This document shows positions 3,093 to 15,787 of a stretch of DNA of 37,137 nt, piece by piece. The DNA comes from Promethearchaeota archaeon (GTDB lineage: Archaea; Asgardarchaeota; Lokiarchaeia; Sigyniarchaeales; SOKP01). The stretch lies in contig RDOE01000032.1 of NCBI GenBank assembly GCA_011364975.1, positions 1-37,137 of the forward strand. The letters are read 5' to 3'. The translations under genes were made by a program, and so were the position numbers. Position 1 is the first letter of the stretch, and each line of letters starts with the position of its first letter. Below the pieces are notes generated by a model. That model saw nothing but the letters and a program-made list of their open reading frames with translations. It was not told the DNA's origin and made no database searches.

Positions 3093-4202
3093 TTAAGTAT
3101 AAGGGACTTTTTTGGGAGGCAAAAACACATCCCGAGGGCCTGTTCTTTTTAAATAAATGGCTTTTTCAGAACAGTGATGAACACATACTCCACAACCAAT
3201 ACATTTTTCTAAATTTATTCTTGCAATTGATTCATCCATCTCAATAGTCTCCATTGGGCAGATTTCGATACAATTTCCACAACCAATGCATTTATTTTCA
3301 TCTAATTCCGCTTGATATGATGTCAGGGTATGAAAAGGCATAACTCCGCTATAATAAAGCTGAAATGGACCACAACAACAAGAGCAACAATTACAAATTG
3401 CTTCCTCTTCTAATTCTGGATTAAGGTGGACATGAAATGCTTTATGGACTAATCCCTCATCAGAGGCTTTATTCATAATTGTTATAGCGTTCTCTTTTGA
3501 TATAGGGTGTGCGAATTTATGTTTAATCGCAAATTGAGCACTTTTACCCAACAAAAAGCAATTAGTTCGTTCATTTGTTGTTTTACAAGATTTTTCTAAG
3601 AGATCCTGTTGATGCCTGCAGTAACAATGAGCTACTGCGATATCATCATATTTTTCTATAATTTTTGAAGCTTCCTCAAGAGGCATAACCTTCTCAACGG
3701 GTATTTCCTCAATTTCTTCTTCTACAGGTATTATTCTCGTCAATGCAGGAAAATTCTGAAATTGCTTAGCGATAAAATCATAATTAGTCTGAGTACCCTC
3801 CTGCATCTCTTTGAATAATTTTTCAAAAAGTTTAGCTATTTTTTTATGTTTTTCATCAGTTTCCCCTCTTAAATTAGTGTATTCAAACAATCCCGGAAAA
3901 GGACCCATTAATCGATACACCATCATACCAGTTCTTCTGCTTGGAACGCCTACTATAATTCCATTATCCATTAAATCATTTAACATCTGGTCTAAGGAAA
4001 TTTCATCAAGATTAGACTTCTCCTTTATTTGATCGAAATTTAAGGAGGGTTTTTTAAATATTTGAATAAATTTCGCTTGGCTATCCGTCATTAGTGTTTG
4101 AAGTAATGTAATGAGTGTATCAGTTATCGGCATTGGCATTTGCCCGGCTTTAACGATTGTACGAGCCGCTTTCAACCAAACTTTATCAATATCTTCAGAC
4201 AT
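3093..4202 (-). CDS. Multi-cluster Fe-S protein with C-terminal 2x[4Fe-4S] ferredoxin domain (paralog 2)
   Basis: Same architecture as 1957-3054: CYCR, ICNCCSCCCG, CIGCGNCIEICP, CIGCGVCVHHCS. The two proteins are colinear over their whole length. Confidence 0.85.
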   Translation of the reverse strand: MSEDIDKVWLKAARTIVKAGQMPMPITDTLITLLQTLMTDSQAKFIQIFKKPSLNFDQIKEKSNLDEISLDQMLNDLMDNGIIVGVPSRRTGMMVYRLMGPFPGLFEYTNLRGETDEKHKKIAKLFEKLFKEMQEGTQTNYDFIAKQFQNFPALTRIIPVEEEIEEIPVEKVMPLEEASKIIEKYDDIAVAHCYCRHQQDLLEKSCKTTNERTNCFLLGKSAQFAIKHKFAHPISKENAITIMNKASDEGLVHKAFHVHLNPELEEEAICNCCSCCCGPFQLYYSGVMPFHTLTSYQAELDENKCIGCGNCIEICPMETIEMDESIARINLEKCIGCGVCVHHCSEKAIYLKRTGPRDVFLPPKKVPYT

Positions 4203-4321
4203 AACTTATTACGAGATGATTATTCTCTTTTTGCATATCAAAATTTCATTAAGATTATTTCTTAATATGTTTAAAATCAAATAAATAATGCTATTAGAAT
4301 TAAAACTTAATGGATGCTTAG

Positions 4322-4768
4322 TTAAAGAGGTTCTTTTATTAAATGATAAGTTTTTTCTGATTTACAATTTGGGCAAGAAATCTTCCTATTTTTAGAAGCT
4401 AGTTCATCTTTCCATTCAGCACCACAATTCAAACACCCATATCCATTAAAAATTTCTTTAACCTCGATATTTCCTCCAGAAATTAGGATATTCTTACCTT
4501 CAACAAGAGCTTGAGTTACCTTTTGATGAGCTTTATCTAAAATTCTTGAAAATGTTGGTTGAGAAACACCCATAGTTCCAGAACAGGTCTTTTGTCCATG
4601 TTCACCTTCTCCCTGAGGAAGATTTCTATAATGTTTCAATCTCATTGCTTCAAATTCAGCAATAGTTAATATCACCGATTTGTCTTTTAAAGAGTTGTCT
4701 ATATCTCTTGGAAAATAAAAATTACTAGGGGGAGGTCTAACAAATCTCATCCTAGTTCTGCGACCCAT
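4322..4768 (-). CDS. DUF134-family putative DNA-binding protein with C-terminal Zn ribbon
   Basis: N-terminal MGRRTRMR, EFEAMRL, MGVSQPTFSRIL..A..KV..ALVEGK, followed by CLNCG...CPNC. Confidence 0.85.
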   Translation of the reverse strand: MGRRTRMRFVRPPPSNFYFPRDIDNSLKDKSVILTIAEFEAMRLKHYRNLPQGEGEHGQKTCSGTMGVSQPTFSRILDKAHQKVTQALVEGKNILISGGNIEVKEIFNGYGCLNCGAEWKDELASKNRKISCPNCKSEKTYHLIKEPL

Positions 4769-5384: not shown

Positions 5385-6572
5385 TTGGTGAGCAAAATAA
5401 AAATTGAATATGCAAATCGTATAAAAAGACTTCCCGCGTACATTTTTGCTGAGATTGAGCAACTTAAATCTGAAAAGAAAAAAGAGGGTGTGGATTTAAT
5501 TCCGTTAGGTATTGGAGATCCTGATATAGCAACTCCACAACTTATTATTGATGAGATTATCAATCAACTCCAAATTCCAGAGAACTATAATTATCCAACG
5601 AGTATGGGAGAGCAAGATTTTAGAGAAGGTATACAAAGATGGTATAAGGTTAGATTTAATCTCGATTTTGATTCTGAAAGCGAAATTACTAACTTAATCG
5701 GAGGTAAAGAGGGTGTTGCTAATATAGCAAGAGCATTTATTAATCCAGGGGATATTGTATTATGTCCTAATCCAGGTTATCCGGTATATGAAAATGGTGC
5801 AACTAAATTATGTGATGGAGAACCCTATTTAGTTCCTTTATTAAAGGAAAATGAATTTCTTCCGGATTTTGAGCAAATAGAGAGTAATATCCTTAAGAAA
5901 GCTAAAATGATGTATCTAAATTATCCAAACAATCCAACTGGAGCTATTGCACCAAATAAATTTCTTAAAGAAGCAATAGATTACGCAGAGGATTATAAAT
6001 TCTTTATAGTTTATGATAACCCATATTCTGAATTTACTTTTGAGGATTACATTGCGCCAACAATACTACAATTGAATCCTTATCATATCGAAATTAATAG
6101 TGCTTCCAAAATTTTTTGTATGACCGGTTTCCGATGCGGTTGGGCGGTTGGAAATAATGAAATTATCAGCGGGATAAGAAAAGTAAAATCCCAGATCGAT
6201 TCAGGATGCCCAATGTTTATTCAAAGAGCTGTAATCAAAGGATTAAATGAATATACATCAGAAAAGAAACCTGAAATTGTAGATAAAAACATGAAAGTCT
6301 ATGAGAAAAGAAGAGATATCTTAATTAAGGGATTAAATGAAATTGGCTGGAAAACCGAAAAACCTAAAGCAACATTTTACGTATGGTCAAAAATTCCTGA
6401 AGGAGAAAAGAATAGTATGGAGTTTGTGAAAAAGCTTATTAATGTAGGAGTGATTTTAACCCCAGGAATAGGATTTGGTCAGTATGGAGAGGGATTCGTA
6501 CGATTTGCACTTACACAACCAATTGAAAAAATTGAAGAAGCGCTTGAAAGAATTGATAAAGTAATTAATTAA
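5385..6572 (+). CDS. Class I/II PLP-dependent aminotransferase, LL-diaminopimelate aminotransferase-like
   Basis: LGIGDPD, LNYPNNPTGA, DNPY and the PLP-lysine motif SASKIFCMTGFRCG; C-terminal GEGFVRFAL. Start may be GTG 5388. Confidence 0.9.
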   Translation: MVSKIKIEYANRIKRLPAYIFAEIEQLKSEKKKEGVDLIPLGIGDPDIATPQLIIDEIINQLQIPENYNYPTSMGEQDFREGIQRWYKVRFNLDFDSESEITNLIGGKEGVANIARAFINPGDIVLCPNPGYPVYENGATKLCDGEPYLVPLLKENEFLPDFEQIESNILKKAKMMYLNYPNNPTGAIAPNKFLKEAIDYAEDYKFFIVYDNPYSEFTFEDYIAPTILQLNPYHIEINSASKIFCMTGFRCGWAVGNNEIISGIRKVKSQIDSGCPMFIQRAVIKGLNEYTSEKKPEIVDKNMKVYEKRRDILIKGLNEIGWKTEKPKATFYVWSKIPEGEKNSMEFVKKLINVGVILTPGIGFGQYGEGFVRFALTQPIEKIEEALERIDKVIN

Positions 6573-6603
6573 AAAAATAGTGTTAATAAAAAAATGATAT
6601 TTT

Positions 6604-6801
6604 TTATTTAGATCTTTTGTTATACTTCATCCTAAGATAAGCCATTTTTTTCTCATCTTCAGACTCTATGATCCCAGGATATGAATCTGAAATGTCGAAC
6701 ATCATCATTACAGGATTACTTTCCGAATTCCAATCTTTATAATAATCAAGGATCAAATCAGATTCCGATTGTTTTTCCAATCCTTTTGACGTATTTTTCA
6801 C
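6604..6801 (-). CDS. Small hypothetical protein (58-65 aa)
   Basis: An archaeal-type SD, AGGAGGTGA (6806-6798), overlaps the called GTG, so the in-frame TTG at 6780 is an alternative start. The ORF lies directly 3' of the structured leader. Confidence 0.6.
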   Translation of the reverse strand: MKNTSKGLEKQSESDLILDYYKDWNSESNPVMMMFDISDSYPGIIESEDEKKMAYLRMKYNKRSK

Positions 6802-6816
6802 CTCCTAATGTTTTGG

Positions 6817-7021
6817 ATGAATTTCACGTCAAGAAAGAATTCTCCAGGCTTCCTAATTCTTATAATTTAAGCAACATATTACTCCGAGAGAACAAATCCC
6901 GCAAAATTATAAGAAAAAGGAAGGAAAAGGATTTATTCTCTCTTCATAATACTGGTACTAAGGTAATAATGGCTCTCTGATAGCCAACCTTTGTAACAGT
7001 ATTATGTCGTGAAAAATTCAT
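6817..7021 (-). ncRNA. Predicted structured RNA (three-way junction): 5' leader of the 6604-6801 ORF, or a standalone ncRNA
   Basis: Nested inverted repeats: 6817-6828/7008-7021, 6945-6954/6997-7006 (perfect 10 bp), 6831-6840/6935-6944 (one G-U, valid only on the minus strand), 6857-6868/6904-6915 (perfect 12 bp) and 6849-6854/6918-6923. Confidence 0.65.
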
Positions 7022-7048
7022 TATTAATAGTATTAAGCGAGTGTAACC

Positions 7049-7062
7049 TTATAAATTTACCC
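7049..7062 (-). promoter_or_regulatory. Archaeal BRE-TATA promoter for the structured leader and small ORF
   Basis: The minus strand reads GGGTAAA-TTTATAA, about 28 nt upstream of the first helix at 7021. Confidence 0.6.
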
Positions 7063-7116
7063 ATTATATTCCCATTTGTTAAAATATCAAAGCAAGTGTT
7101 TTTCTATATCAATTTT

Positions 7117-7149
7117 TTTACTAGTAAATACATCAACTTTACTAGTAAT
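7117..7149. promoter_or_regulatory. Tandem palindromic putative operator (TTACTAGTAA x2)
   Basis: TTTACTAGTAAA at 7117-7128 and TTTACTAGTAAT at 7138-7149, 21 bp apart, in a divergent intergenic region. Confidence 0.45.
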
Positions 7150-7260
7150 AAGCTTTTAATGCTGATAAGAGCTTAAAATAGCTTTAAATATTGGCATACA
7201 ACATTTGTAATACAACTATATCCAAAACATTTTTTTATAAATGAGGTAATATAGTTTCTT

Positions 7261-8211
7261 ATGAAATCTAAAATGAAAGGAAATATTGAAGATAAGTATA
7301 AAAAAGCTACAAACATTTTATGGAAGATTTGGTGGTTTTTTGTATTTCTTTTTATTATCCCATCAGTAATAACGTTTTTAAGTTTTGTTATTATTAATTT
7401 TATCGCAGTTCGCATCGAAATTTTCGCAGGACCAGATATTTATGTTATAGTGGGCTTAACTGTTATTGTTTTCATCTTTTCTGTTTTGTTTTTTTATCGA
7501 TTCTTTGATAGATATCGAGACAAACCGATATTTTTTAACCAAGAAAATAATCTTGCTGCTCGGATTCATATACTATATCTCATTACGATTTTTTCTTTGA
7601 TTGTTACTCCCATTTTTGTATTTATAACCCCTGAAGAATACCAATTTGAATTATTACCGTTAATTTCATTTTGCCTCCTGTATAATATTGTCTATTTTTA
7701 TATTTCATTAAAACCAATTGATTATTTTAACGCATCAGAAAGAAGTTTTAAACGTGCGTTAAAGCTTTCACTCTCATTAAAACAACCACATAATTTTTTG
7801 ATTATTATCAATTATTTTATTCAAATAATATATCTCTCGTTAATTTTTCAAACTAGAATCTCTTGGCTTTTCGCGTTAATTACTAATCTACTTTTTTATA
7901 TAATTACATTGGGAACTACTAGTAAAATTCGTAAAGTTATTTCTAATTCTTTTAAAGAAGATAATAGATTCCTAAATGAACTTTCTTTATATAAAGAAAA
8001 ATTTGTCTCTTCTATTCTTAGTTTAAATTTTGTATTGCTGATTCAAATCCCGTTTGTAATAATAGGTGTGAATAGCTTTCAAGGAATATCTTACTCAATA
8101 ATGGATATTTTTAATGCATCTATTTATGCAATTTTGGTCTTCTTTCTGTATCTTAAATTTAGAATTTATTTAATTATAAATCATAAAAAATTTATCTTGA
8201 GTGTGAGTTAA
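7261..8211 (+). CDS. Polytopic membrane protein, hypothetical (possibly the N-terminal part of the downstream giant protein)
   Basis: 316 aa with multiple long hydrophobic segments. It ends 1 nt before the next ORF. Confidence 0.75.
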   Translation: MKSKMKGNIEDKYKKATNILWKIWWFFVFLFIIPSVITFLSFVIINFIAVRIEIFAGPDIYVIVGLTVIVFIFSVLFFYRFFDRYRDKPIFFNQENNLAARIHILYLITIFSLIVTPIFVFITPEEYQFELLPLISFCLLYNIVYFYISLKPIDYFNASERSFKRALKLSLSLKQPHNFLIIINYFIQIIYLSLIFQTRISWLFALITNLLFYIITLGTTSKIRKVISNSFKEDNRFLNELSLYKEKFVSSILSLNFVLLIQIPFVIIGVNSFQGISYSIMDIFNASIYAILVFFLYLKFRIYLIINHKKFILSVS

Positions 8212-8212
8212 A

Positions 8213-11200
8213 TTGGGAGCTAAAAGCAATGATTTAGTAAAAAAGGAAAATTTGTCAAAATACCAAAAAATAAATGGATATTTATCTATTTTATTTGAAA
8301 TTATTATTATTCTGTTTTCTTTCTTTATTGGATTCCCTATAATCATTATACTTTCTTTTCCAATATTTGTGCTTCTAACAATTTATGAACAGAAAGTGGA
8401 TATTTGTCCAAGAGAATATAGTAGATTCATCTATCTAATTAATGTTCTTGGATTTTTAGGGTATATATGTTTTTGGCTTTTACCATTACTCATTCCAAAC
8501 ATCCTTTTTACAATACCCTTTATCGTATTCTTATTGTTATTTTATCTTTCCATGCAAATCTTTGCCCATAATGGATATTTTGATAAAAATAATGTTTTAA
8601 TATTTCAACATATTCTTGCGGTGGGAATGTTTATTACAATTATCTATTCCTTCTTCGATATTATCTCAACAGGATATATCAATTTTTCTGCTGAGACCGA
8701 GATTATAATTTTTGCAAACGTATTATTGCACATAATAATTAATCTTATAGTTCTTCTGATTTCCTTTTATTATTTATATGCAAGATATTTCCGTAATTTT
8801 CCTTGGAAAAATTTTAATCGGGCTATAATTACAAATATGTTATTAATCGAAATAACTGCATATATTTTAATTAATTTCAAGAATTTCTTTACTATAAATA
8901 TCCAAATGTTTCTGAATAACTTTCTCGTTTCTCTACTTGTATTTCCACTATTGTTCATTCTTTTTATTTTTCTAAATTATGTAATTGGTGCTTTTAGTAG
9001 GGATTTTAGTTTAAAGTATTGCTATTACTCTTGTTGGGTTATTTTACTAGTATCTGCTGCCTCAATCTTCTATATCTTTTTTGGAGATTTTGTAATTATA
9101 ATAGCTAATTTCTTGTATATTTCAATAGCTATACAAGTTTTATCGATGTTCGCATTAAAAATTAATAAAATTCAAGAAAAAACATTTCAGAAAATAAAGA
9201 ATTACACTGCTTATTCCATCTGGATCGAAATCTTTGTATTGTCTTTCTCTTTGTTTTTTAATGTACTTGAAGCTCTGATTATAAATCTAATTAGCAGGTC
9301 AATCCTTTCGGTGTATTTAGCCTTTTTGATCATAACAGCATTTAATATGATTGTAAATAAAACAGGCATTATCCCAGTTTCTTTACGAATTATAACAATA
9401 GACTTTGCCTTGTTTTATACAACATTTATAATTTTTTATTTCTCTCTTCTGTTAAACTTTAACACTTTTTTGGTATTTAATGTTCCAGCTTTATTATCTA
9501 GTTTATGGCTCTATCTACCCTTATTTAGGTTGAAAAGACGGGCTTCAAATCAAGGTTTAATAAAAAAGATAATTCAATTAAATGTAATTATTACATCGAT
9601 TACTTTACTTCTTATTCCTTTAATTTCTCATTTACAATTACAACTTCCTTTATCTGATTTCACACTTCTAAACTTAGTAAACTTTACATTATACATTTTC
9701 TATGGAATACTGACAGGGTTGCACATATTATCTCGCAGGCTTAATTTTAGGGAAGCTAGAAAAATTTTGATCTTAAAGGTTCAAATTGTTATTGAAATTG
9801 TCATAACAGGGACTACGGTGTTTTACTATTCTTTTGTTTTATTATTTGGTACCTACTTATCTTTCGTGTTACCTTTACTCTTTTCTTCACTCTTTCTATT
9901 TTTACCTGCTTTCTTTTCATACAAAAGGAATTTTTTCAATGCTAAAATACTAAAAAACATTATTATTTTGAACAGTATAGTACTTTGGGGCTGTATTATT
10001 TCCATTCCCTTTATGATAGGGTTTGATATATTTGGAATTGAAGTATTAATTTCTGAAATAGCAACAAATTTAATTATTGTAATTTTAATTTCATTTTTTC
10101 TGTTATTTAGTGCCTTAAAATATTTTGATAATCTTTCTAAATACCTAAAATTAAAGGATAATCTTATCATACGTTTAAAGATTACAGAAATTATTATATG
10201 GTTATCAATTTGCGTTTTAGTTAGTTATGGATTATATAACTTATTCTCGTTTGTTTCTACTGAGTGGCAATATATTTTAATATTGAGTGGTTCTTTCCTA
10301 CTTTTTTTCATAATTGATTTAGTAAATCTTCGATTACTTGAAGATCTGAAGCAAACTGTATTTGAAAGTGAAATTAGCAAGATTGATTATTATAAAATCT
10401 ATAAAATCTATGAATTTAACAAAAATTTAATTATATTTGGAATTTCATTCTCACTCTCTTTTCTTTTAACAACTTTCATTCAAATAATAAATATTCCAGG
10501 ATTATTATCGATAGAAAGTTTTCAATACTTTGATCTGTTATTTAATTTTTCTTTTTTCTTCCTCTTTGTATTGGGATTGATCAATCTTTTTGAAAAACTA
10601 GTTAAAATCGAATATGAAAGATTTAAAGAAATTCTTGAATTAATCGCTTGGTTATGCTTAAAAAGCTTAGTTTTAATAATATTTGCTTTATATCCATTTC
10701 ATATCTTATTTTACAACAGAATATTGTTAATTATTCTAATATTTTCGGTACTTAGTCCAATCACTCTTACCTATTTAAAAACAAAATTCTTGATTTTTGA
10801 AGAAACTCAATTGTTAATAAAAAAATGTATTGGATTAGTATTTTTTCTCTCCATAGTAAGCGCTTATGCAGAGATTTTATTGGATTATACTGGAATTGTG
10901 CCATTTTTTATAACAAATAATGATATATTAAGTATATATATTCTTTGTAAAGTTATCTTATTTGTATACTTCTATTTCTCGAGATTTAATGCTTTTTTTG
11001 AAAAAGATTCAGGTTTTCGTATTTATCGGTTAATGCTTTATTCGGTGATATTTTTAGGATTTTTTTCATTATTTTCACCTTTATTATCGTTGATTGGAAT
11101 AATATTGATCTTAATTAAACGAGCGAAGAATTATTTTCTCCGGTTTTTAAGTTATTTTTTAATTAGTATTACCTTATACATTGATATTCTCGGATTTACA

Positions 11201-14200
11201 GGATTTAGTTTATCTATAGCAAACATTAATTTACAAATTACAATCTATTTAGGGATATTTATCTCAACATTAATTCTTTCTATTTGTTCAAATCTCAAAA
11301 AAATTAATAATCTAGAAGAATTTTCGCTTTTTGTCTGTCTTTCTACCATCTCCTTCTTACTATTATATCCGATTATTCCATTACTTTATAATATCACTGT
11401 TTCGCTATTTATATACTTAAGCTTAATGGGCGTCTTTTATTATAATAAAAAGGATAAGAGATACAGATGGTTTGTTAAACCATGCATCCTTTTAGCAGTA
11501 TTTGACTTTATTAGTTTTATATCCTACACAATACTTTTTACTATTACTCCTTTTTTGGAATTTAATCAAATATTAACATTCACTTTAACAATATTTATCA
11601 CAGGTTTTCTCTTTGTTTTTCTTTATAATGATTCTCCACGTTTATTTAGAAAAAGTAGCTACTATATAATTCTAACTTTAAACACATTTTCTCTTCCAAT
11701 ATTTATATATTTCTTATTAATAGCCGCCTTTTCATTACCAATTTTTGATATAACTGTCTTCACAATTGCCATCAATATAGCTATTCTTCTTTTCTATTTT
11801 TCTATCGCTATTTATCAATGGAACATTTCATGGGCAATATGGAGCATTGGTTATAGAATTTGGATATTATTACCTATAGCAAATTATATGTTAATCAGTA
11901 AGGCTTTTACAGGCATTGATGTGTTTACTAATGCGCTTGACTTCTTTGGACTTAATATTTATGGTTCAAATATTATTGCATTTGTAATTTGTTTGTTAAT
12001 GTCATTACCCTTTTGGTACACCTGGATTAAGAAGAATTTTAATACAGTGCTGTTTATCGTATGGGGTTTAAGTTTAATTTTAATTTATTGGTTCAGCCAA
12101 AATGCATTTTTAAATGATATTTTTCTATTCATTTTATCATTTTTTGGAATCTCACTAATTTTTCTTATTCCCATTTTAATAAGAATGAAGATTTGGAGCA
12201 TTGGGTCTATATTATGGACCTTTTTTTCAACAATAATGCTGATTTTTCTCTTTAATTTCCTAAATGCCCATGGTCTGTTAATTCAATTGAATATTTCGGT
12301 GATTCTTATTGTTGGGGGAATTTTATTTATTATTTTATCATTTTTCCCTAGTCTAAGGGCCCAAAAAAACATTATTTTATTAATTTCTTTTATAATTTCA
12401 ATTAGTGGTGTATTTCTAATAATATTTAATATAATATATTTAATAACCTTCGAATTTTGGATTTCACTGTTTATATCTCTGATTATAATGTCTTTTAGTC
12501 TTTATTCATCAAGATTGTTAAAATTAAACAAAAGTTTCTTTAATACCTTAATTTCTAGTATCTTGATTATTAGTTTTACTGGTTTGACTTTCTTTACTTT
12601 AAATTTAATTCCCAACTTAGAGCTCCTTTCCTTTTATTTAGCTTTAACCGTTTGTGGAGCATCTTTTTTTGTATTTAATTACTATCGTCTCTTTGTTCCA
12701 GCAAAAAGAATAGTTCCGTTAACTATTTTATCTGTTGGCCTTTCACTTTCCGCTTCAACAATATGGTTGATGGTATTTCCTTCATCTTTATTTGTTATGC
12801 TTGCTATTTTTCTAGCTATTAATTTATTTTTCTTTAAGTTTGCGTTAATAAACCGAAGGTATATATTATGGTATTTAAGTCCAATTCCGATAACGCTTCT
12901 AATTTTAGAGCCTTTATCTTTTATTGAACTCTTTCAGTCATTATTATTATTTATTATTATGGGTTTGATGACGTATACTATTATTTTTCAGATATTAATA
13001 AACCTGTCTAGTAAAACTACAAAAGAAAGAATGCAGATTAAGTTAGTTAATTTAGTCTGTTTTCTTCTCATATCTACATATTTTTCTTTTTTGATTACCG
13101 CAATAAGTCCTATCTTATTAATATATCAAATTTTTGAGTTTTTAATTATCTGGTCAATCTTAGTATTATTTAGTACAAATTATCTTAAAAAATCACAAAT
13201 TACTTTTGACCTTGAAAATTTTGAGGTAAATTTAAAAAGATTTATCTCAATTGTTTCTATTTTGTTATATTTCGAAATATTTTCTCTTACTTTGGGGCTT
13301 TTGATTAATTATAGCCTATTAACTACCCTGGAAATTATTATAATCTCTTTTAGTTCCCTATTCCTCCTCACTGGGTTCGATTTAGCGATCTTAAGAAATG
13401 TCAATAAGAAATATTGTTTCCCTATTAATTATTCAACCTATTTGTTAATTTCTATACTATTGTTCATTTATTTAATACAATATGTTACCGATACATTTGA
13501 ATTTCTATTTTTGGATATAATTATTCTGTTAATTATGCAATATTATTCAATACTAGCGATTTTTTCTCATTTAAAGAGGTTAGATCGATATGAGATTACA
13601 ACATTAAATATTAGGCGTAAAGGATTGTTAAGTCTCTTAACAAACTCTATCTTTATAATAATAGGGTTGTATATATCCTCATTTTTGACAACTCTACTTA
13701 CCAACTTAAATCCGGCATTAGAAGGTTTTCCATCAACTTCATTTTTTATTATGGTTCTATCGTTTTTCATGTTCGTTTTAAATAATCTCCTTAAATATAA
13801 GTCAAAGAATTCAATATTATGGGGGATTTTTATAGTGTTACAATGCTCACTATCTACATTTTACCTAAGCTTATTAGCATTTTTCAATTATTTCAACATC
13901 TTTAGTATAATACTTCTCTTTCTCATTAACACTTTAATGAGCTTTTATACATTTTACATCCTCTCAAAGATTTACAAAGCACGAATAAATAAGGATACAA
14001 TTCGTAAAATCTATTCATTATTAATCATAATCTCATATTTAGAAATTTCCTTCACATTCTACGGACTTGCTAATCTTATATTTGATTATAGAGAAAGCTT
14101 CTTAATTTCTCAACTTGCTTTACTTTCCATTACTTTAGTGGAATTAAGCGTTGTGAAAAGAATCAGGAGGAAGTATATTCTAATTCTCCATACACTCAGT

Positions 14201-15787
14201 TATTTTAATGTTTCCATATCACTTTTCATGTTTTTGTTAATTCTTTCGGCCTACAATATGTCCTTACTAACGTTCTCAGTCGTCCTCTTTTGTCTAATGC
14301 AGTTCTATACAAATATCTCTTATTATAACACTAGAAAAGAATTCAATTTAGAGAAAGAAGAGAGTTTTCTTAGGTGGAAATTAATTAGGAAAAATTTGAT
14401 TGGGGGAATTTTTTATATTACTATAATCGGGTATATATGGCAAGTTCTATTTTTAGCAGGTTACGAAATTCTTTTAATGCTATTTCTTTTAATTATTCTC
14501 ATTCATGTATTAGCCATAATTGATAGGGTGGTTTTAAAATTTATTGGAAGGTTTTCTGTACACCTGATGAATTTTTCTTGGTTATTTTTAGTAGGTTTTT
14601 CATTGTTTTACTATTCAAGTTGGATTATAACATATTCTTTTTATGTTATTCCTGTGATTATCCTTCTTATTATCATAGAATTATCATATGGATATATGGT
14701 CAAATTAACGGATATATGGGCATCATTTAAAAATAATCGAAGGAAATTCAGAAATTTTTTGGTAATTATAACCTATTTTAACTTTATATCCTGGCCAATC
14801 TACTTTTTAAGCTTAGAGCCAATGATTTTTTGGGGATCCATATTACTTTCTTTGGGAATTGGATTAACTTTTACATTGATTGATAAAAGTATTAGAGCTT
14901 TTAATGAAGATTTTAGAGCGAGGTTATTTAAACTTTTATTTAGTAGCTTTGGAATCATTTTTTCTGTCGATGTTTATTTCCTTTTAGATGGATTAACTGC
15001 AAATAACTTCTTTTTTAATATTTCAGTCTCATTATTTACATTCGTTATATTTATAGGTATTCTTATTAATCCTTTCAAAAGAAATAGGTTATTATCATTC
15101 CTATATTGGACCATAACATTTTTTCTACTTAGTAGTATTTCATATAATGCCTATTTTACCGGGATAAGCTGGGCAATATTAATTATCGGTTTATTATTAT
15201 ATCCATTTATTTTTATGTTAGAAGAATTGAAACTCTTCTTTGAAAAATTTGTTGAAAACATTAGTATCCTTCTTAAGAAAATTGCAGCTTCTATAGGTAA
15301 ACTTATTACAGGAATATTCAATTTTCTTAAGAGGAACTATAAAGTTATACGTATATTTTTATGCGTACTTTTTGGAGTGATGGCGGGAATCCTGTTTTCT
15401 GATATTATTTTACATATCTTAAATCCCTATCACTCTTTATTGCTTGCATTTGCGATCTTTGGTCTGTTATATGGTATCCTTCCTTCAGAAAAAACTGAGG
15501 ATTATGACGAAATTTTTAAACATAAAATGACTAGATTCATAACACTCTGGGTGGGTATGACTGCATTTATTTTTCTTTTTATTTTACCTTATTTAGAGTC
15601 GGTACTATTTTCTTTTTTCCTTTTGTTGCTTTCAATTTTAGGTTTAGGAGCGATAATTTTGATCTACCTATATAGATTAGAAGAAAAAGAGCGGATCTCA
15701 ATCTTATGGCGTTTTTATACATTGATTACCTTCTTTATAATTTTAGGGATTGAAGCAGTAATTATAGTATTTTTATATATCTCTTAG
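8213..15787 (+). CDS. Giant polytopic membrane protein of unknown function (2524 aa)
   Basis: A 7.5-kb uninterrupted ORF in AT-rich DNA, composed of F/I/L-rich ~20-aa segments separated by short K/R-rich loops throughout. No recognisable enzymatic motif. Confidence 0.85.
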   Translation: MGAKSNDLVKKENLSKYQKINGYLSILFEIIIILFSFFIGFPIIIILSFPIFVLLTIYEQKVDICPREYSRFIYLINVLGFLGYICFWLLPLLIPNILFTIPFIVFLLLFYLSMQIFAHNGYFDKNNVLIFQHILAVGMFITIIYSFFDIISTGYINFSAETEIIIFANVLLHIIINLIVLLISFYYLYARYFRNFPWKNFNRAIITNMLLIEITAYILINFKNFFTINIQMFLNNFLVSLLVFPLLFILFIFLNYVIGAFSRDFSLKYCYYSCWVILLVSAASIFYIFFGDFVIIIANFLYISIAIQVLSMFALKINKIQEKTFQKIKNYTAYSIWIEIFVLSFSLFFNVLEALIINLISRSILSVYLAFLIITAFNMIVNKTGIIPVSLRIITIDFALFYTTFIIFYFSLLLNFNTFLVFNVPALLSSLWLYLPLFRLKRRASNQGLIKKIIQLNVIITSITLLLIPLISHLQLQLPLSDFTLLNLVNFTLYIFYGILTGLHILSRRLNFREARKILILKVQIVIEIVITGTTVFYYSFVLLFGTYLSFVLPLLFSSLFLFLPAFFSYKRNFFNAKILKNIIILNSIVLWGCIISIPFMIGFDIFGIEVLISEIATNLIIVILISFFLLFSALKYFDNLSKYLKLKDNLIIRLKITEIIIWLSICVLVSYGLYNLFSFVSTEWQYILILSGSFLLFFIIDLVNLRLLEDLKQTVFESEISKIDYYKIYKIYEFNKNLIIFGISFSLSFLLTTFIQIINIPGLLSIESFQYFDLLFNFSFFFLFVLGLINLFEKLVKIEYERFKEILELIAWLCLKSLVLIIFALYPFHILFYNRILLIILIFSVLSPITLTYLKTKFLIFEETQLLIKKCIGLVFFLSIVSAYAEILLDYTGIVPFFITNNDILSIYILCKVILFVYFYFSRFNAFFEKDSGFRIYRLMLYSVIFLGFFSLFSPLLSLIGIILILIKRAKNYFLRFLSYFLISITLYIDILGFTGFSLSIANINLQITIYLGIFISTLILSICSNLKKINNLEEFSLFVCLSTISFLLLYPIIPLLYNITVSLFIYLSLMGVFYYNKKDKRYRWFVKPCILLAVFDFISFISYTILFTITPFLEFNQILTFTLTIFITGFLFVFLYNDSPRLFRKSSYYIILTLNTFSLPIFIYFLLIAAFSLPIFDITVFTIAINIAILLFYFSIAIYQWNISWAIWSIGYRIWILLPIANYMLISKAFTGIDVFTNALDFFGLNIYGSNIIAFVICLLMSLPFWYTWIKKNFNTVLFIVWGLSLILIYWFSQNAFLNDIFLFILSFFGISLIFLIPILIRMKIWSIGSILWTFFSTIMLIFLFNFLNAHGLLIQLNISVILIVGGILFIILSFFPSLRAQKNIILLISFIISISGVFLIIFNIIYLITFEFWISLFISLIIMSFSLYSSRLLKLNKSFFNTLISSILIISFTGLTFFTLNLIPNLELLSFYLALTVCGASFFVFNYYRLFVPAKRIVPLTILSVGLSLSASTIWLMVFPSSLFVMLAIFLAINLFFFKFALINRRYILWYLSPIPITLLILEPLSFIELFQSLLLFIIMGLMTYTIIFQILINLSSKTTKERMQIKLVNLVCFLLISTYFSFLITAISPILLIYQIFEFLIIWSILVLFSTNYLKKSQITFDLENFEVNLKRFISIVSILLYFEIFSLTLGLLINYSLLTTLEIIIISFSSLFLLTGFDLAILRNVNKKYCFPINYSTYLLISILLFIYLIQYVTDTFEFLFLDIIILLIMQYYSILAIFSHLKRLDRYEITTLNIRRKGLLSLLTNSIFIIIGLYISSFLTTLLTNLNPALEGFPSTSFFIMVLSFFMFVLNNLLKYKSKNSILWGIFIVLQCSLSTFYLSLLAFFNYFNIFSIILLFLINTLMSFYTFYILSKIYKARINKDTIRKIYSLLIIISYLEISFTFYGLANLIFDYRESFLISQLALLSITLVELSVVKRIRRKYILILHTLSYFNVSISLFMFLLILSAYNMSLLTFSVVLFCLMQFYTNISYYNTRKEFNLEKEESFLRWKLIRKNLIGGIFYITIIGYIWQVLFLAGYEILLMLFLLIILIHVLAIIDRVVLKFIGRFSVHLMNFSWLFLVGFSLFYYSSWIITYSFYVIPVIILLIIIELSYGYMVKLTDIWASFKNNRRKFRNFLVIITYFNFISWPIYFLSLEPMIFWGSILLSLGIGLTFTLIDKSIRAFNEDFRARLFKLLFSSFGIIFSVDVYFLLDGLTANNFFFNISVSLFTFVIFIGILINPFKRNRLLSFLYWTITFFLLSSISYNAYFTGISWAILIIGLLLYPFIFMLEELKLFFEKFVENISILLKKIAASIGKLITGIFNFLKRNYKVIRIFLCVLFGVMAGILFSDIILHILNPYHSLLLAFAIFGLLYGILPSEKTEDYDEIFKHKMTRFITLWVGMTAFIFLFILPYLESVLFSFFLLLLSILGLGAIILIYLYRLEEKERISILWRFYTLITFFIILGIEAVIIVFLYIS

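Follow-up and report, generated by a model that had tools for sequence, protein, structure and literature searches.

The locus raises the question why the gene of a microprotein in an Asgard archaeon is preceded by a long and very stable RNA structure. The window analyzed here is a stretch of 37,137 nt from a Promethearchaeota archaeon (contig RDOE01000032.1), and the structured region is located on its minus strand at 6817-7021. The first-pass annotation, made from the letters of the DNA, had interpreted this region as a structured 5' untranslated region of ~220 nt between an archaeal promoter and a small ORF. Our analysis retains a structured leader on the minus strand, flanked by a TATA promoter and a small ORF that are both conserved; it does not retain the long untranslated region, because 78 nt of the leader are a conserved upstream reading frame (uORF). 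We consider it rather probable that the leader is a ribosome-mediated (leader-peptide) attenuator of the 65-aa microprotein gene.

The folded RNA and the small ORF behind it

Folding of the minus strand from 6802 to 7030 gave an MFE of -73.8 kcal/mol, compared with -42.4 +/- 4.2 kcal/mol for 200 dinucleotide shuffles (z -7.40), and none of these shuffles was equally stable. The plus strand of the same region forms a weaker fold (-62.3 kcal/mol, z -5.7), in agreement with the earlier assignment of the structure to the minus strand. The predicted fold is the three-way junction that had already been described. The closing helix P1 consists of a 5' strand at 7008-7021, which contains the AUG of the uORF and the sequence UUUUUCAC, and a 3' strand at 6817-6830. 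The hairpin H1 (6945-7006, 62 nt) lies within the uORF and covers codons 6-25, and the remaining arm is a rod of 114 nt (6831-6944) whose strands are designated seg1 to seg5. At the base of the rod the switch strand seg1 (6929-6943), which starts directly after the stop codon of the uORF, pairs with the 3' strand seg5 (6831-6845). In the distal rod the pyrimidine-rich seg2 (6904-6924), which includes CCUUUUUCUU, forms the 5' strand and pairs with seg4 (6849-6868) as the 3' strand. The conserved tip of the rod, seg3 (6886-6900), is complementary to seg1 and can pair with it in an alternative hairpin, designated helix A; an extension of seg3 (6875-6885) is complementary to the 3' arm of H1. The complementarity between the rod tip and the 5' base strand of the rod had been missed in the first-pass annotation.

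When the 22 sequences of the genus were folded individually, all 22 MFE structures contained H1, 21 contained the distal rod (seg2:seg4), 20 the rod base (seg1:seg5) and 16 contained P1; the equilibrium fold was the junction in 21 of the 22 copies. Pairing was analyzed in a model-guided alignment of the genus and in a family alignment of 24 rows, one of which is a stray match on the opposite strand. In the genus alignment 71.7% of the cells were paired, compared with 45-52% with the partners slid, and 27 pairs were changed on both sides (8-16 when slid). The family alignment showed 78.3% paired cells versus 41-49% when slid, 53 of 66 pairs changed on both sides versus 17-27, and a covariation score of 0.294 versus 0.03-0.09 for slid and 0.122 for shuffled alignments. 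For both alignments none of 500 shuffles matched the observed values, a margin that is still large considering that the alignments were fitted to the structure of the model and favor this structure. Within the family alignment 80-96% of the cells of H1 were paired, with compensatory changes; for the distal rod the value was 82%, and both partners had changed in 10 of 15 pairs. We conclude that the structure is genuine and that one family of Asgard archaea has kept it through compensatory changes; covariation in the regions upstream of homologues of the small protein had been proposed as a check in the first-pass annotation, and it was found there.

A search of the whole window against Rfam 15, comprising riboswitches, SRP, RNase P, H/ACA and other RNAs, yielded no match at the gathering score. 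The best sub-threshold matches of a permissive search had E-values of 0.65-8.3 and 13-21 bits compared with cut-offs of 41-171; those to snR46 (H/ACA) and Phe_leader (E 0.65 and 0.9) were discarded as chance matches.

Downstream of the RNA, at a distance of 10 nt from P1, a strong Shine-Dalgarno (SD)-like box is located at 6798-6806 (AGGAGGTGA / AGGAGGUGA), and both this box and the TATA box TTTATAA at 7049-7055 are found where they had been placed before. The sequence GGAGGUG is unchanged in 20 of the 22 genus copies and reads AGAGGUG in two; GAGGUG is present in all 22. The main ORF (6604-6801, minus strand) encodes a microprotein of 65 aa if read from GUG, with an acidic middle and basic ends, and its length across the copies is 58-65 aa. 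In many copies the start codon is weak or non-canonical, either GUG within the SD box or UUG, CUG, AUA or AUG a few bases downstream of it; of the 12 copies of one subgroup, 11 carry ACG as the fourth codon and the remaining one AUG. The small ORF behind the leader is indeed a conserved ORF. Its protein profile matched 100 of the 134 further genomes of its GTDB family, representing 10 of 13 genera, and none of 19 genomes from other families of the order, and its only matches among 1.84 billion proteins were 19 cluster representatives. The microprotein belongs to no Pfam family and matched only unnamed clusters of the ESM Atlas with scores under 0.9. The AlphaFold model contains two short helices at low confidence (pLDDT 62.7). 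Distant genera have the family split in two, with an ORF of 41-45 aa immediately behind the RNA and another one 250-400 nt farther downstream; fused forms exist as well.

On the plus strand, an ORF of 99 aa at 6681-6980 overlaps the structure, and the first-pass annotation had stated that a conserved protein encoded there would speak against a structured leader. This ORF is not conserved: the stop-free stretch of 102 aa in the window corresponds to stretches of 32-87 aa, in other frames, in 21 homologues. The structured leader stands.

The RNA occurs as a single copy in its own genome. Of 24 genomes of the genus, 22 contained homologous DNA covering both RNA and ORF, with 67-72% identity; none of 16 genomes from three sister families did. 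Using R1, a covariance model built from the genus alignment and the fold of the window, we surveyed the range of the RNA beyond the genus at protein-anchored loci. Nine other genera contributed 24 loci, and at 23 of these the RNA was detected upstream of the protein, two matches being partial; at the one exception, L201, R1 found no RNA upstream of the protein. In addition, R1 revealed a second, diverged tandem copy in six genomes of the genus, and at L008, where this was checked, GGAGGUGA and a paralogous small ORF again come after the tandem copy. Linkage at these 23 loci and in the duplicates shows that RNA and ORF family travel together.

In three closed genomes from sister families the RNA was not matched among the 150 candidates scored per genome, a result that says little, as these were drawn from up to ~7,900 candidates each and from 546 in the smallest genome. 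A metagenome scan with a loose pattern, covering 7 of 64 parts of the collection, located the RNA at 1 of 119 loci. The only match from four RNA runs was a contig of 183 nt from a mangrove metatranscriptome, which aligns to 6816-6986 with 18 differences at a depth of 3 and reaches neither the ORF nor the 5' end. This contig is weak evidence for the leader of a relative in an RNA library, because DNA can be present in such libraries.

The own promoter-like box, the very stable fold and the position of this single contig on the structured part are features expected of a stable non-coding RNA gene that stands alone and merely happens to lie upstream of a small ORF. We regard such a gene as highly improbable: the RNA accompanies the ORF family across genera and duplicates together with it, the SD box follows closely with no separate promoter conserved in between, and a homologous element precedes leuS (see below). 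A cis-regulatory role, one of the functions considered at first, is the most likely one, as RNA and ORF stay together in the tandem paralogues and across 10 genera; the proposals of a merely stabilizing leader and of RNA binding by the basic C-terminus of the small protein are among the parts of the first-pass annotation that found no support.

The upstream reading frame and its promoter

The 5' third of the RNA is an open reading frame, which had been overlooked in the first-pass annotation. The uORF comprises 25 codons (7021-6947, minus strand) followed by UGA (6946-6944) and runs through the 5' strand of P1 and through H1. Its AUG at the start of P1 is invariant in the alignment. The frame is open in all 22 copies of the genus (24-29 codons), in 4 of 6 tandem paralogues, in 4 of 4 distant copies and in all 23 rows from nine other genera (20-31 codons). 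Over 30 copies we counted no stop codon in frame 1, compared with 87 in frame 2 and 59 in frame 3. The lengths of the uORF within the genus (72, 75, 78 and 87 nt) are all multiples of three; the rod, by contrast, shows gaps of 1-2 nt in the alignment.

The TATA hexamer of the window ends 28 nt before the AUG of the uORF. The distance from the end of a TTTAWA hexamer to this AUG is 25-30 nt in most lineages; one clade has the hexamer at 44 nt and a second TATA-like box at 19-25 nt. The usual spacing of archaeal TATA boxes places the start of transcription at or a few bases before the AUG. Since the distance from TATA box to AUG fits this spacing, the uORF is probably leaderless, with transcription predicted to begin at or just before its first codon. 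Upstream of the TATA box a repeated TGGG element is located at 7056-7075 (minus strand), with ATGGGAA at 7069-7075 and TGGGTAAA at 7056-7063. ATGGGAA is nearly invariant among the 22 genus copies, and the second copy differs between clades, which have either TGGG or its inversion CCCA. The element is a candidate site for a regulator, and it may serve as such.

Within the genus the peptide encoded by the uORF is fairly conserved (M.FS.HNT...G.KRA.IP.V.VL), with synonymous changes such as TCA/TCG, ATT/ATC and CCC/CCA. Third codon positions are hardly freer than the others (identity 0.81 versus 0.85 and 0.84 at the first two). From genus to genus the peptide drifts; one large genus reads the 3' arm of H1 in a different frame, and there the stop codon lies inside seg1 rather than just before it. 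Judged from these alignments, it is the frame and its end point at seg1 that is conserved and not the peptide, and the uORF is presumably translated. Readthrough or hopping at its stop codon was also considered and rejected, since the frame after the stop closes within three codons in several copies, and since the Leu codon before the stop lacks an in-frame match at the main ORF.

The conservation of the peptide within the genus and its synonymous changes could also point to a bicistronic operon with a functional peptide of 25 aa, in which the folds would serve constitutive translational coupling or mRNA stability and not sensing. A perfect SD box combined with weak start codons would suit coupling or re-initiation. 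Such an operon is unlikely in view of the free drift of the peptide between genera and of the different 3'-arm frame in one of them, and two findings described below, the second conserved helix and the leucine tail of the leuS leader, argue against it as well.

Alternative pairing of the strand behind the uORF

RNAalifold applied to a plain MAFFT alignment recovered H1, three P1-like pairs and a hairpin of seg1 with seg3, helix A, and not the rod. The rod is absent from this result because its arms are misaligned in the plain alignment. Helix A is a local hairpin of 13-15 bp. Over 14 pairs and 22 sequences it was 99.3% paired, one pair showing the series UA/UG/CG, and seg1 and seg3 change together in the paralogues, in the other genera and in the leuS copies. 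In an alignment-free duplex analysis helix A had a mean energy of -23.4 kcal/mol and, measured against 300 control windows, ranked in the top 5% for 47 of the 49 copies; for the rod base seg1:seg5 the mean was -13.6 kcal/mol, with a rank among the best 5% of controls in 32 of 49 copies. Within this genus the 3' arm of H1 joins helix A, whose length then reaches about 26-30 nt; the partner of this arm is a copy of the H1 5'-arm sequence just after seg3 (6875-6885). The two partners of seg1, seg3 and seg5, are mutually exclusive, and seg1 begins directly after the uORF stop. Among the 23 rows from other genera the MFE fold was helix A in 5. Coupling or stability, as in the bicistronic operon, needs no second, mutually exclusive conserved helix.

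Two conserved alternative folds and a tight three-way junction would also be in keeping with a riboswitch or protein-binding switch, in which a ligand or a protein, possibly the microprotein, would select junction or helix A and the reading frame would be incidental. The strongly conserved apical loop of H1, GGCUAUAAGAGAGCC, and the unit's own conserved TGGG motif upstream would fit such a switch. We nevertheless find it quite unlikely: Rfam contains no match, the length of the frame varies in multiples of three while it remains open, without a single stop in 30 copies, most of the conserved unpaired sequence is explained by the alternative pairing, and the leuS copy has a matching run of codons.

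In the attenuator that we favor, transcription would start at or just before the AUG, which would open the frame of 25 codons passing the 5' strand of P1 and H1 and stopping directly before seg1. Helix A should form first, before the junction, because it is local and its strands are transcribed first. A ribosome in the Val/Leu/Ile-rich tail of the frame or at its stop codon would cover the 3' arm of H1, seg1 or both; the position of the ribosome and its dwell time would for this reason decide between helix A and the junction, and hence the output of the microprotein. We infer that the leader may in this way sense amino acids and may influence the main ORF.

For the direction of this control, the opening energies of the ribosome site under four modelled states gave no consistent answer. 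Of 35 copies, 15 showed a cost of opening the site of the main ORF that was higher by 2 kcal/mol or more in the context of helix A, and 8 showed one that was lower by 2 kcal/mol or more; in the window the increase was 6.6 kcal/mol. Ten leuS leaders showed mean opening costs of 4.2 versus 3.0 kcal/mol between the folds. A scan of 6500-7200 for terminators of the bacterial type, hairpin plus U-run, from which archaeal signals differ, detected none. Transcription might still end by oligo-U termination of the archaeal kind at CCUUUUUCUU, which is conserved in seg2, or through a termination factor acting on uncoupled RNA.

Tail codons, the leuS leader and known attenuators

In the last eight codons of the uORF 65% are Val, Leu or Ile, compared with 17% in the rest of the frame; the genome-wide value for long ORFs of this genome is 25.7%. 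Of 49 copies, 37 have at least five such codons among the last eight; one large genus has just three. The Val/Leu codons of the tail are the one-base-shifted complement of Asn/Thr codons in the 5' arm of H1, and for this reason pairing alone could create the bias. The leader of leuS, with its leucine-specific tail, argues against an origin by pairing alone.

In this genome a TATA-like box and a frame of 28-29 codons that ends in five leucines are located ~225 nt upstream of leuS, followed by a seg1/seg3 pair and an H1-like hairpin. Fifteen leuS loci of the genus were examined and the start was located in 13, 10 of which have a frame with a leucine run. These frames end with ..LLAVLLLLL or a close variant (4-5 Leu), and the helix-A partner pairs with -16 to -26 kcal/mol. 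The N-terminus, MISNNT., resembles those of the paralogous and distant microprotein leaders. The R1 search did not detect the leuS leader, and its homology to the microprotein leader is therefore based on architecture and motifs. A functional peptide, as assumed for the bicistronic operon, would leave the swap to a leucine tail unexplained. In a scan of the own genome for sister leaders the strict search gave 13 raw matches from 10 places and the relaxed search 11; the reversed genome gave 100 matches without comparable masking, and because of this control the scan by itself is no evidence. Only the two top matches, the microprotein leader and the leuS leader, are backed by conservation.

The microprotein has no known link to branched-chain amino acids, but the sister leader does precede leuS. 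A more far-reaching reading, which we regard as possible though short of probable, is an amino-acid-sensing regulon of this Asgard family on one RNA chassis, with the microprotein as a branched-chain effector and with the first leader-peptide attenuation in archaea. Its chassis would be a leaderless mini-frame that passes through a hairpin and ends at a two-state fold, and the tail codons would set the amino acid that is sensed, a leucine run before leuS and Val/Leu before the microprotein.

Ribosome-mediated attenuation is a textbook mechanism of bacteria and needs coupled transcription and translation. The enterobacterial attenuators trpL, ilvL/ivbL, leuL and pheM-pheST likewise have a short leader frame with last codons enriched for particular amino acids, and the end of this frame overlaps the first of several mutually exclusive RNA segments, and the leucine-run sister copy before the leucine-related gene leuS is a parallel to them. 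In contrast to these systems, the Asgard leader has an archaeal host, a probably leaderless frame and no hairpin with U-run; its alternatives are a three-way junction and a local hairpin instead of antiterminator and terminator, and the gene behind it encodes a microprotein without assigned function. Translational attenuation of ermC and cat also combines a leader frame and alternative hairpins before a gene with its own SD sequence, but there a drug-bound ribosome is sensed and the SD sequence is clearly sequestered in the off state, neither of which is seen in the Asgard leader.

The closest published system consulted is the leaderless polycysteine short-ORF attenuator of mycobacteria (Canestrari et al., bioRxiv 10.1101/834739). 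In that system a leaderless sensory short ORF is the first cistron, the position of the ribosome on the codon tract is proposed to remodel the mRNA structure at several loci, termed a 'ribulon', and stalling of ribosomes prevents a duplex that would otherwise mask the ribosome-binding site further downstream. Both systems place a leaderless short ORF first, which for the Asgard leader is the predicted arrangement, are proposed to remodel mRNA structure through the position of the ribosome on a codon tract, and use one design at several loci. They differ in that the computed masking of the downstream ribosome site is inconsistent in the Asgard leaders, in the codons that would be sensed, Val/Leu rather than Cys, and in the host, Asgard archaea rather than bacteria.

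The geometry of the locus also resembles the 35S shunt of Cauliflower mosaic virus, where a long stable hairpin likewise rises from the end of a short ORF and is followed closely, past its 3' side, by the main start. By analogy, ribosomes that terminate at the uORF might be passed by the junction over the 114-nt rod and re-initiate, as in a shunt, at the weak main start. We judge this to be very unlikely. The viral shunt is eukaryotic and depends on cap-dependent scanning, whereas the Asgard main ORF has a strong SD box, and the likeness is a geometric one only.

A literature search outside subscription journals for leader peptides, attenuation, uORFs and structured leaders in archaea or Asgard archaea gave nothing relevant among the top-ranked full-text matches listed, all of which were bacterial or unrelated papers. 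This kind of control thus looks to be without an archaeal report in the literature searched, and Rfam appears to hold no such family. If the attenuator is confirmed, Asgard archaea would use the position of the ribosome as a metabolic sensor, a family-wide microprotein would be tied to amino-acid supply, and leader-peptide attenuation would be found for the first time in Archaea, in the lineage closest to eukaryotes. The design is easy to test, as sensor tail, helix A and rod base can be changed separately by compensatory mutations.

Complementarity to the main ORF was observed for other parts of the leader as well. The sequence UUUUUCAC in the 5' strand of P1 is complementary to GUGAAAAA at the main start (6794-6801). 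A further complementarity connects seg5 with codons ~8-14 of the main ORF; it occurs at homologous positions in 12 of the 22 genus copies and not in the window.

Related copies of the leader

The whole module, consisting of the leader and the ORF of the 65-aa microprotein, is duplicated in tandem in six genomes of the genus. The leaders of the second copies were matched by R1, the covariance model built from the genus alignment and the fold of the window, with scores of 32-43 bits at L007 (2130-2354), L008 (2165-2374), L012 (2245-2397), L013 (1058-1290, minus strand), L014 (2241-2388) and L021 (1061-1283, minus strand). At their 3' end these leaders carry GGAGGUGA, and at L008 the leader is followed by a paralogous ORF of 78 aa. 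The hairpin and the upstream frame are missing from two of the six copies. In at least four of them seg5, which can pair with seg1 (the strand after the upstream-frame stop) at the base of the rod, contains CACCUC, a motif complementary to the Shine-Dalgarno box that follows some 20 nt later.

A sister leader was found in the window's own genome about 225 nt upstream of leuS (contig C47, ~4150-4420, minus strand, locus L202). It comprises a TATA-like box and a frame of 28-29 codons, the last five of which encode leucine; a seg1/seg3 pair and a hairpin follow, in a design that matches that of the microprotein leader. The leuS start was located in 13 genomes of the genus, and in 10 of these a leucine-run frame precedes the gene.

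Promoter-proximal element and start of the main ORF

Directly upstream of the TATA box, in the window (7056-7075) and its homologues, a conserved ATGGGAA is followed after 6-7 nt by a second element, which is TGGG in some clades and the inverted CCCA in others. Judged by sequence, this pair looks like a candidate binding site for a regulator. The tandem paralogues have ATGGGGATAA in its place.

At the main ORF (window 6780-6806 and homologues) a perfect Shine-Dalgarno box is combined with weak or non-canonical start codons: GUG within the box, or UUG, CUG or AUA soon after it. Of the 12 copies in one subgroup, 11 read ACG at the fourth codon, an uncommon choice for an AT-rich genome, and the remaining copy reads AUG there.

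Microprotein in other genera and neighbouring genes

In several other genera (L030-L033, L189-L200) the leader is followed by an ORF of 41-45 aa ending in ..IAW or ..LAW, and only 250-400 nt beyond it lies an ORF with PGEIEIEDE..YLW. Both parts are fused in the database proteins P0025 and P0026, and the split and fused forms together suggest that the 65-aa protein of the window's genus represents a two-part system in compact form.

A class I/II aminotransferase gene (5385-6572, plus strand) is convergent with the microprotein gene in the window and in most genus genomes; lying on the opposite strand, it is not co-transcribed with it. Divergent from the leader are two plus-strand ORFs, a membrane-like one of 316 aa (7261-8211), which gave no significant Pfam match, and after it one of 2524 aa (8213-15787) composed almost entirely of hydrophobic segments.
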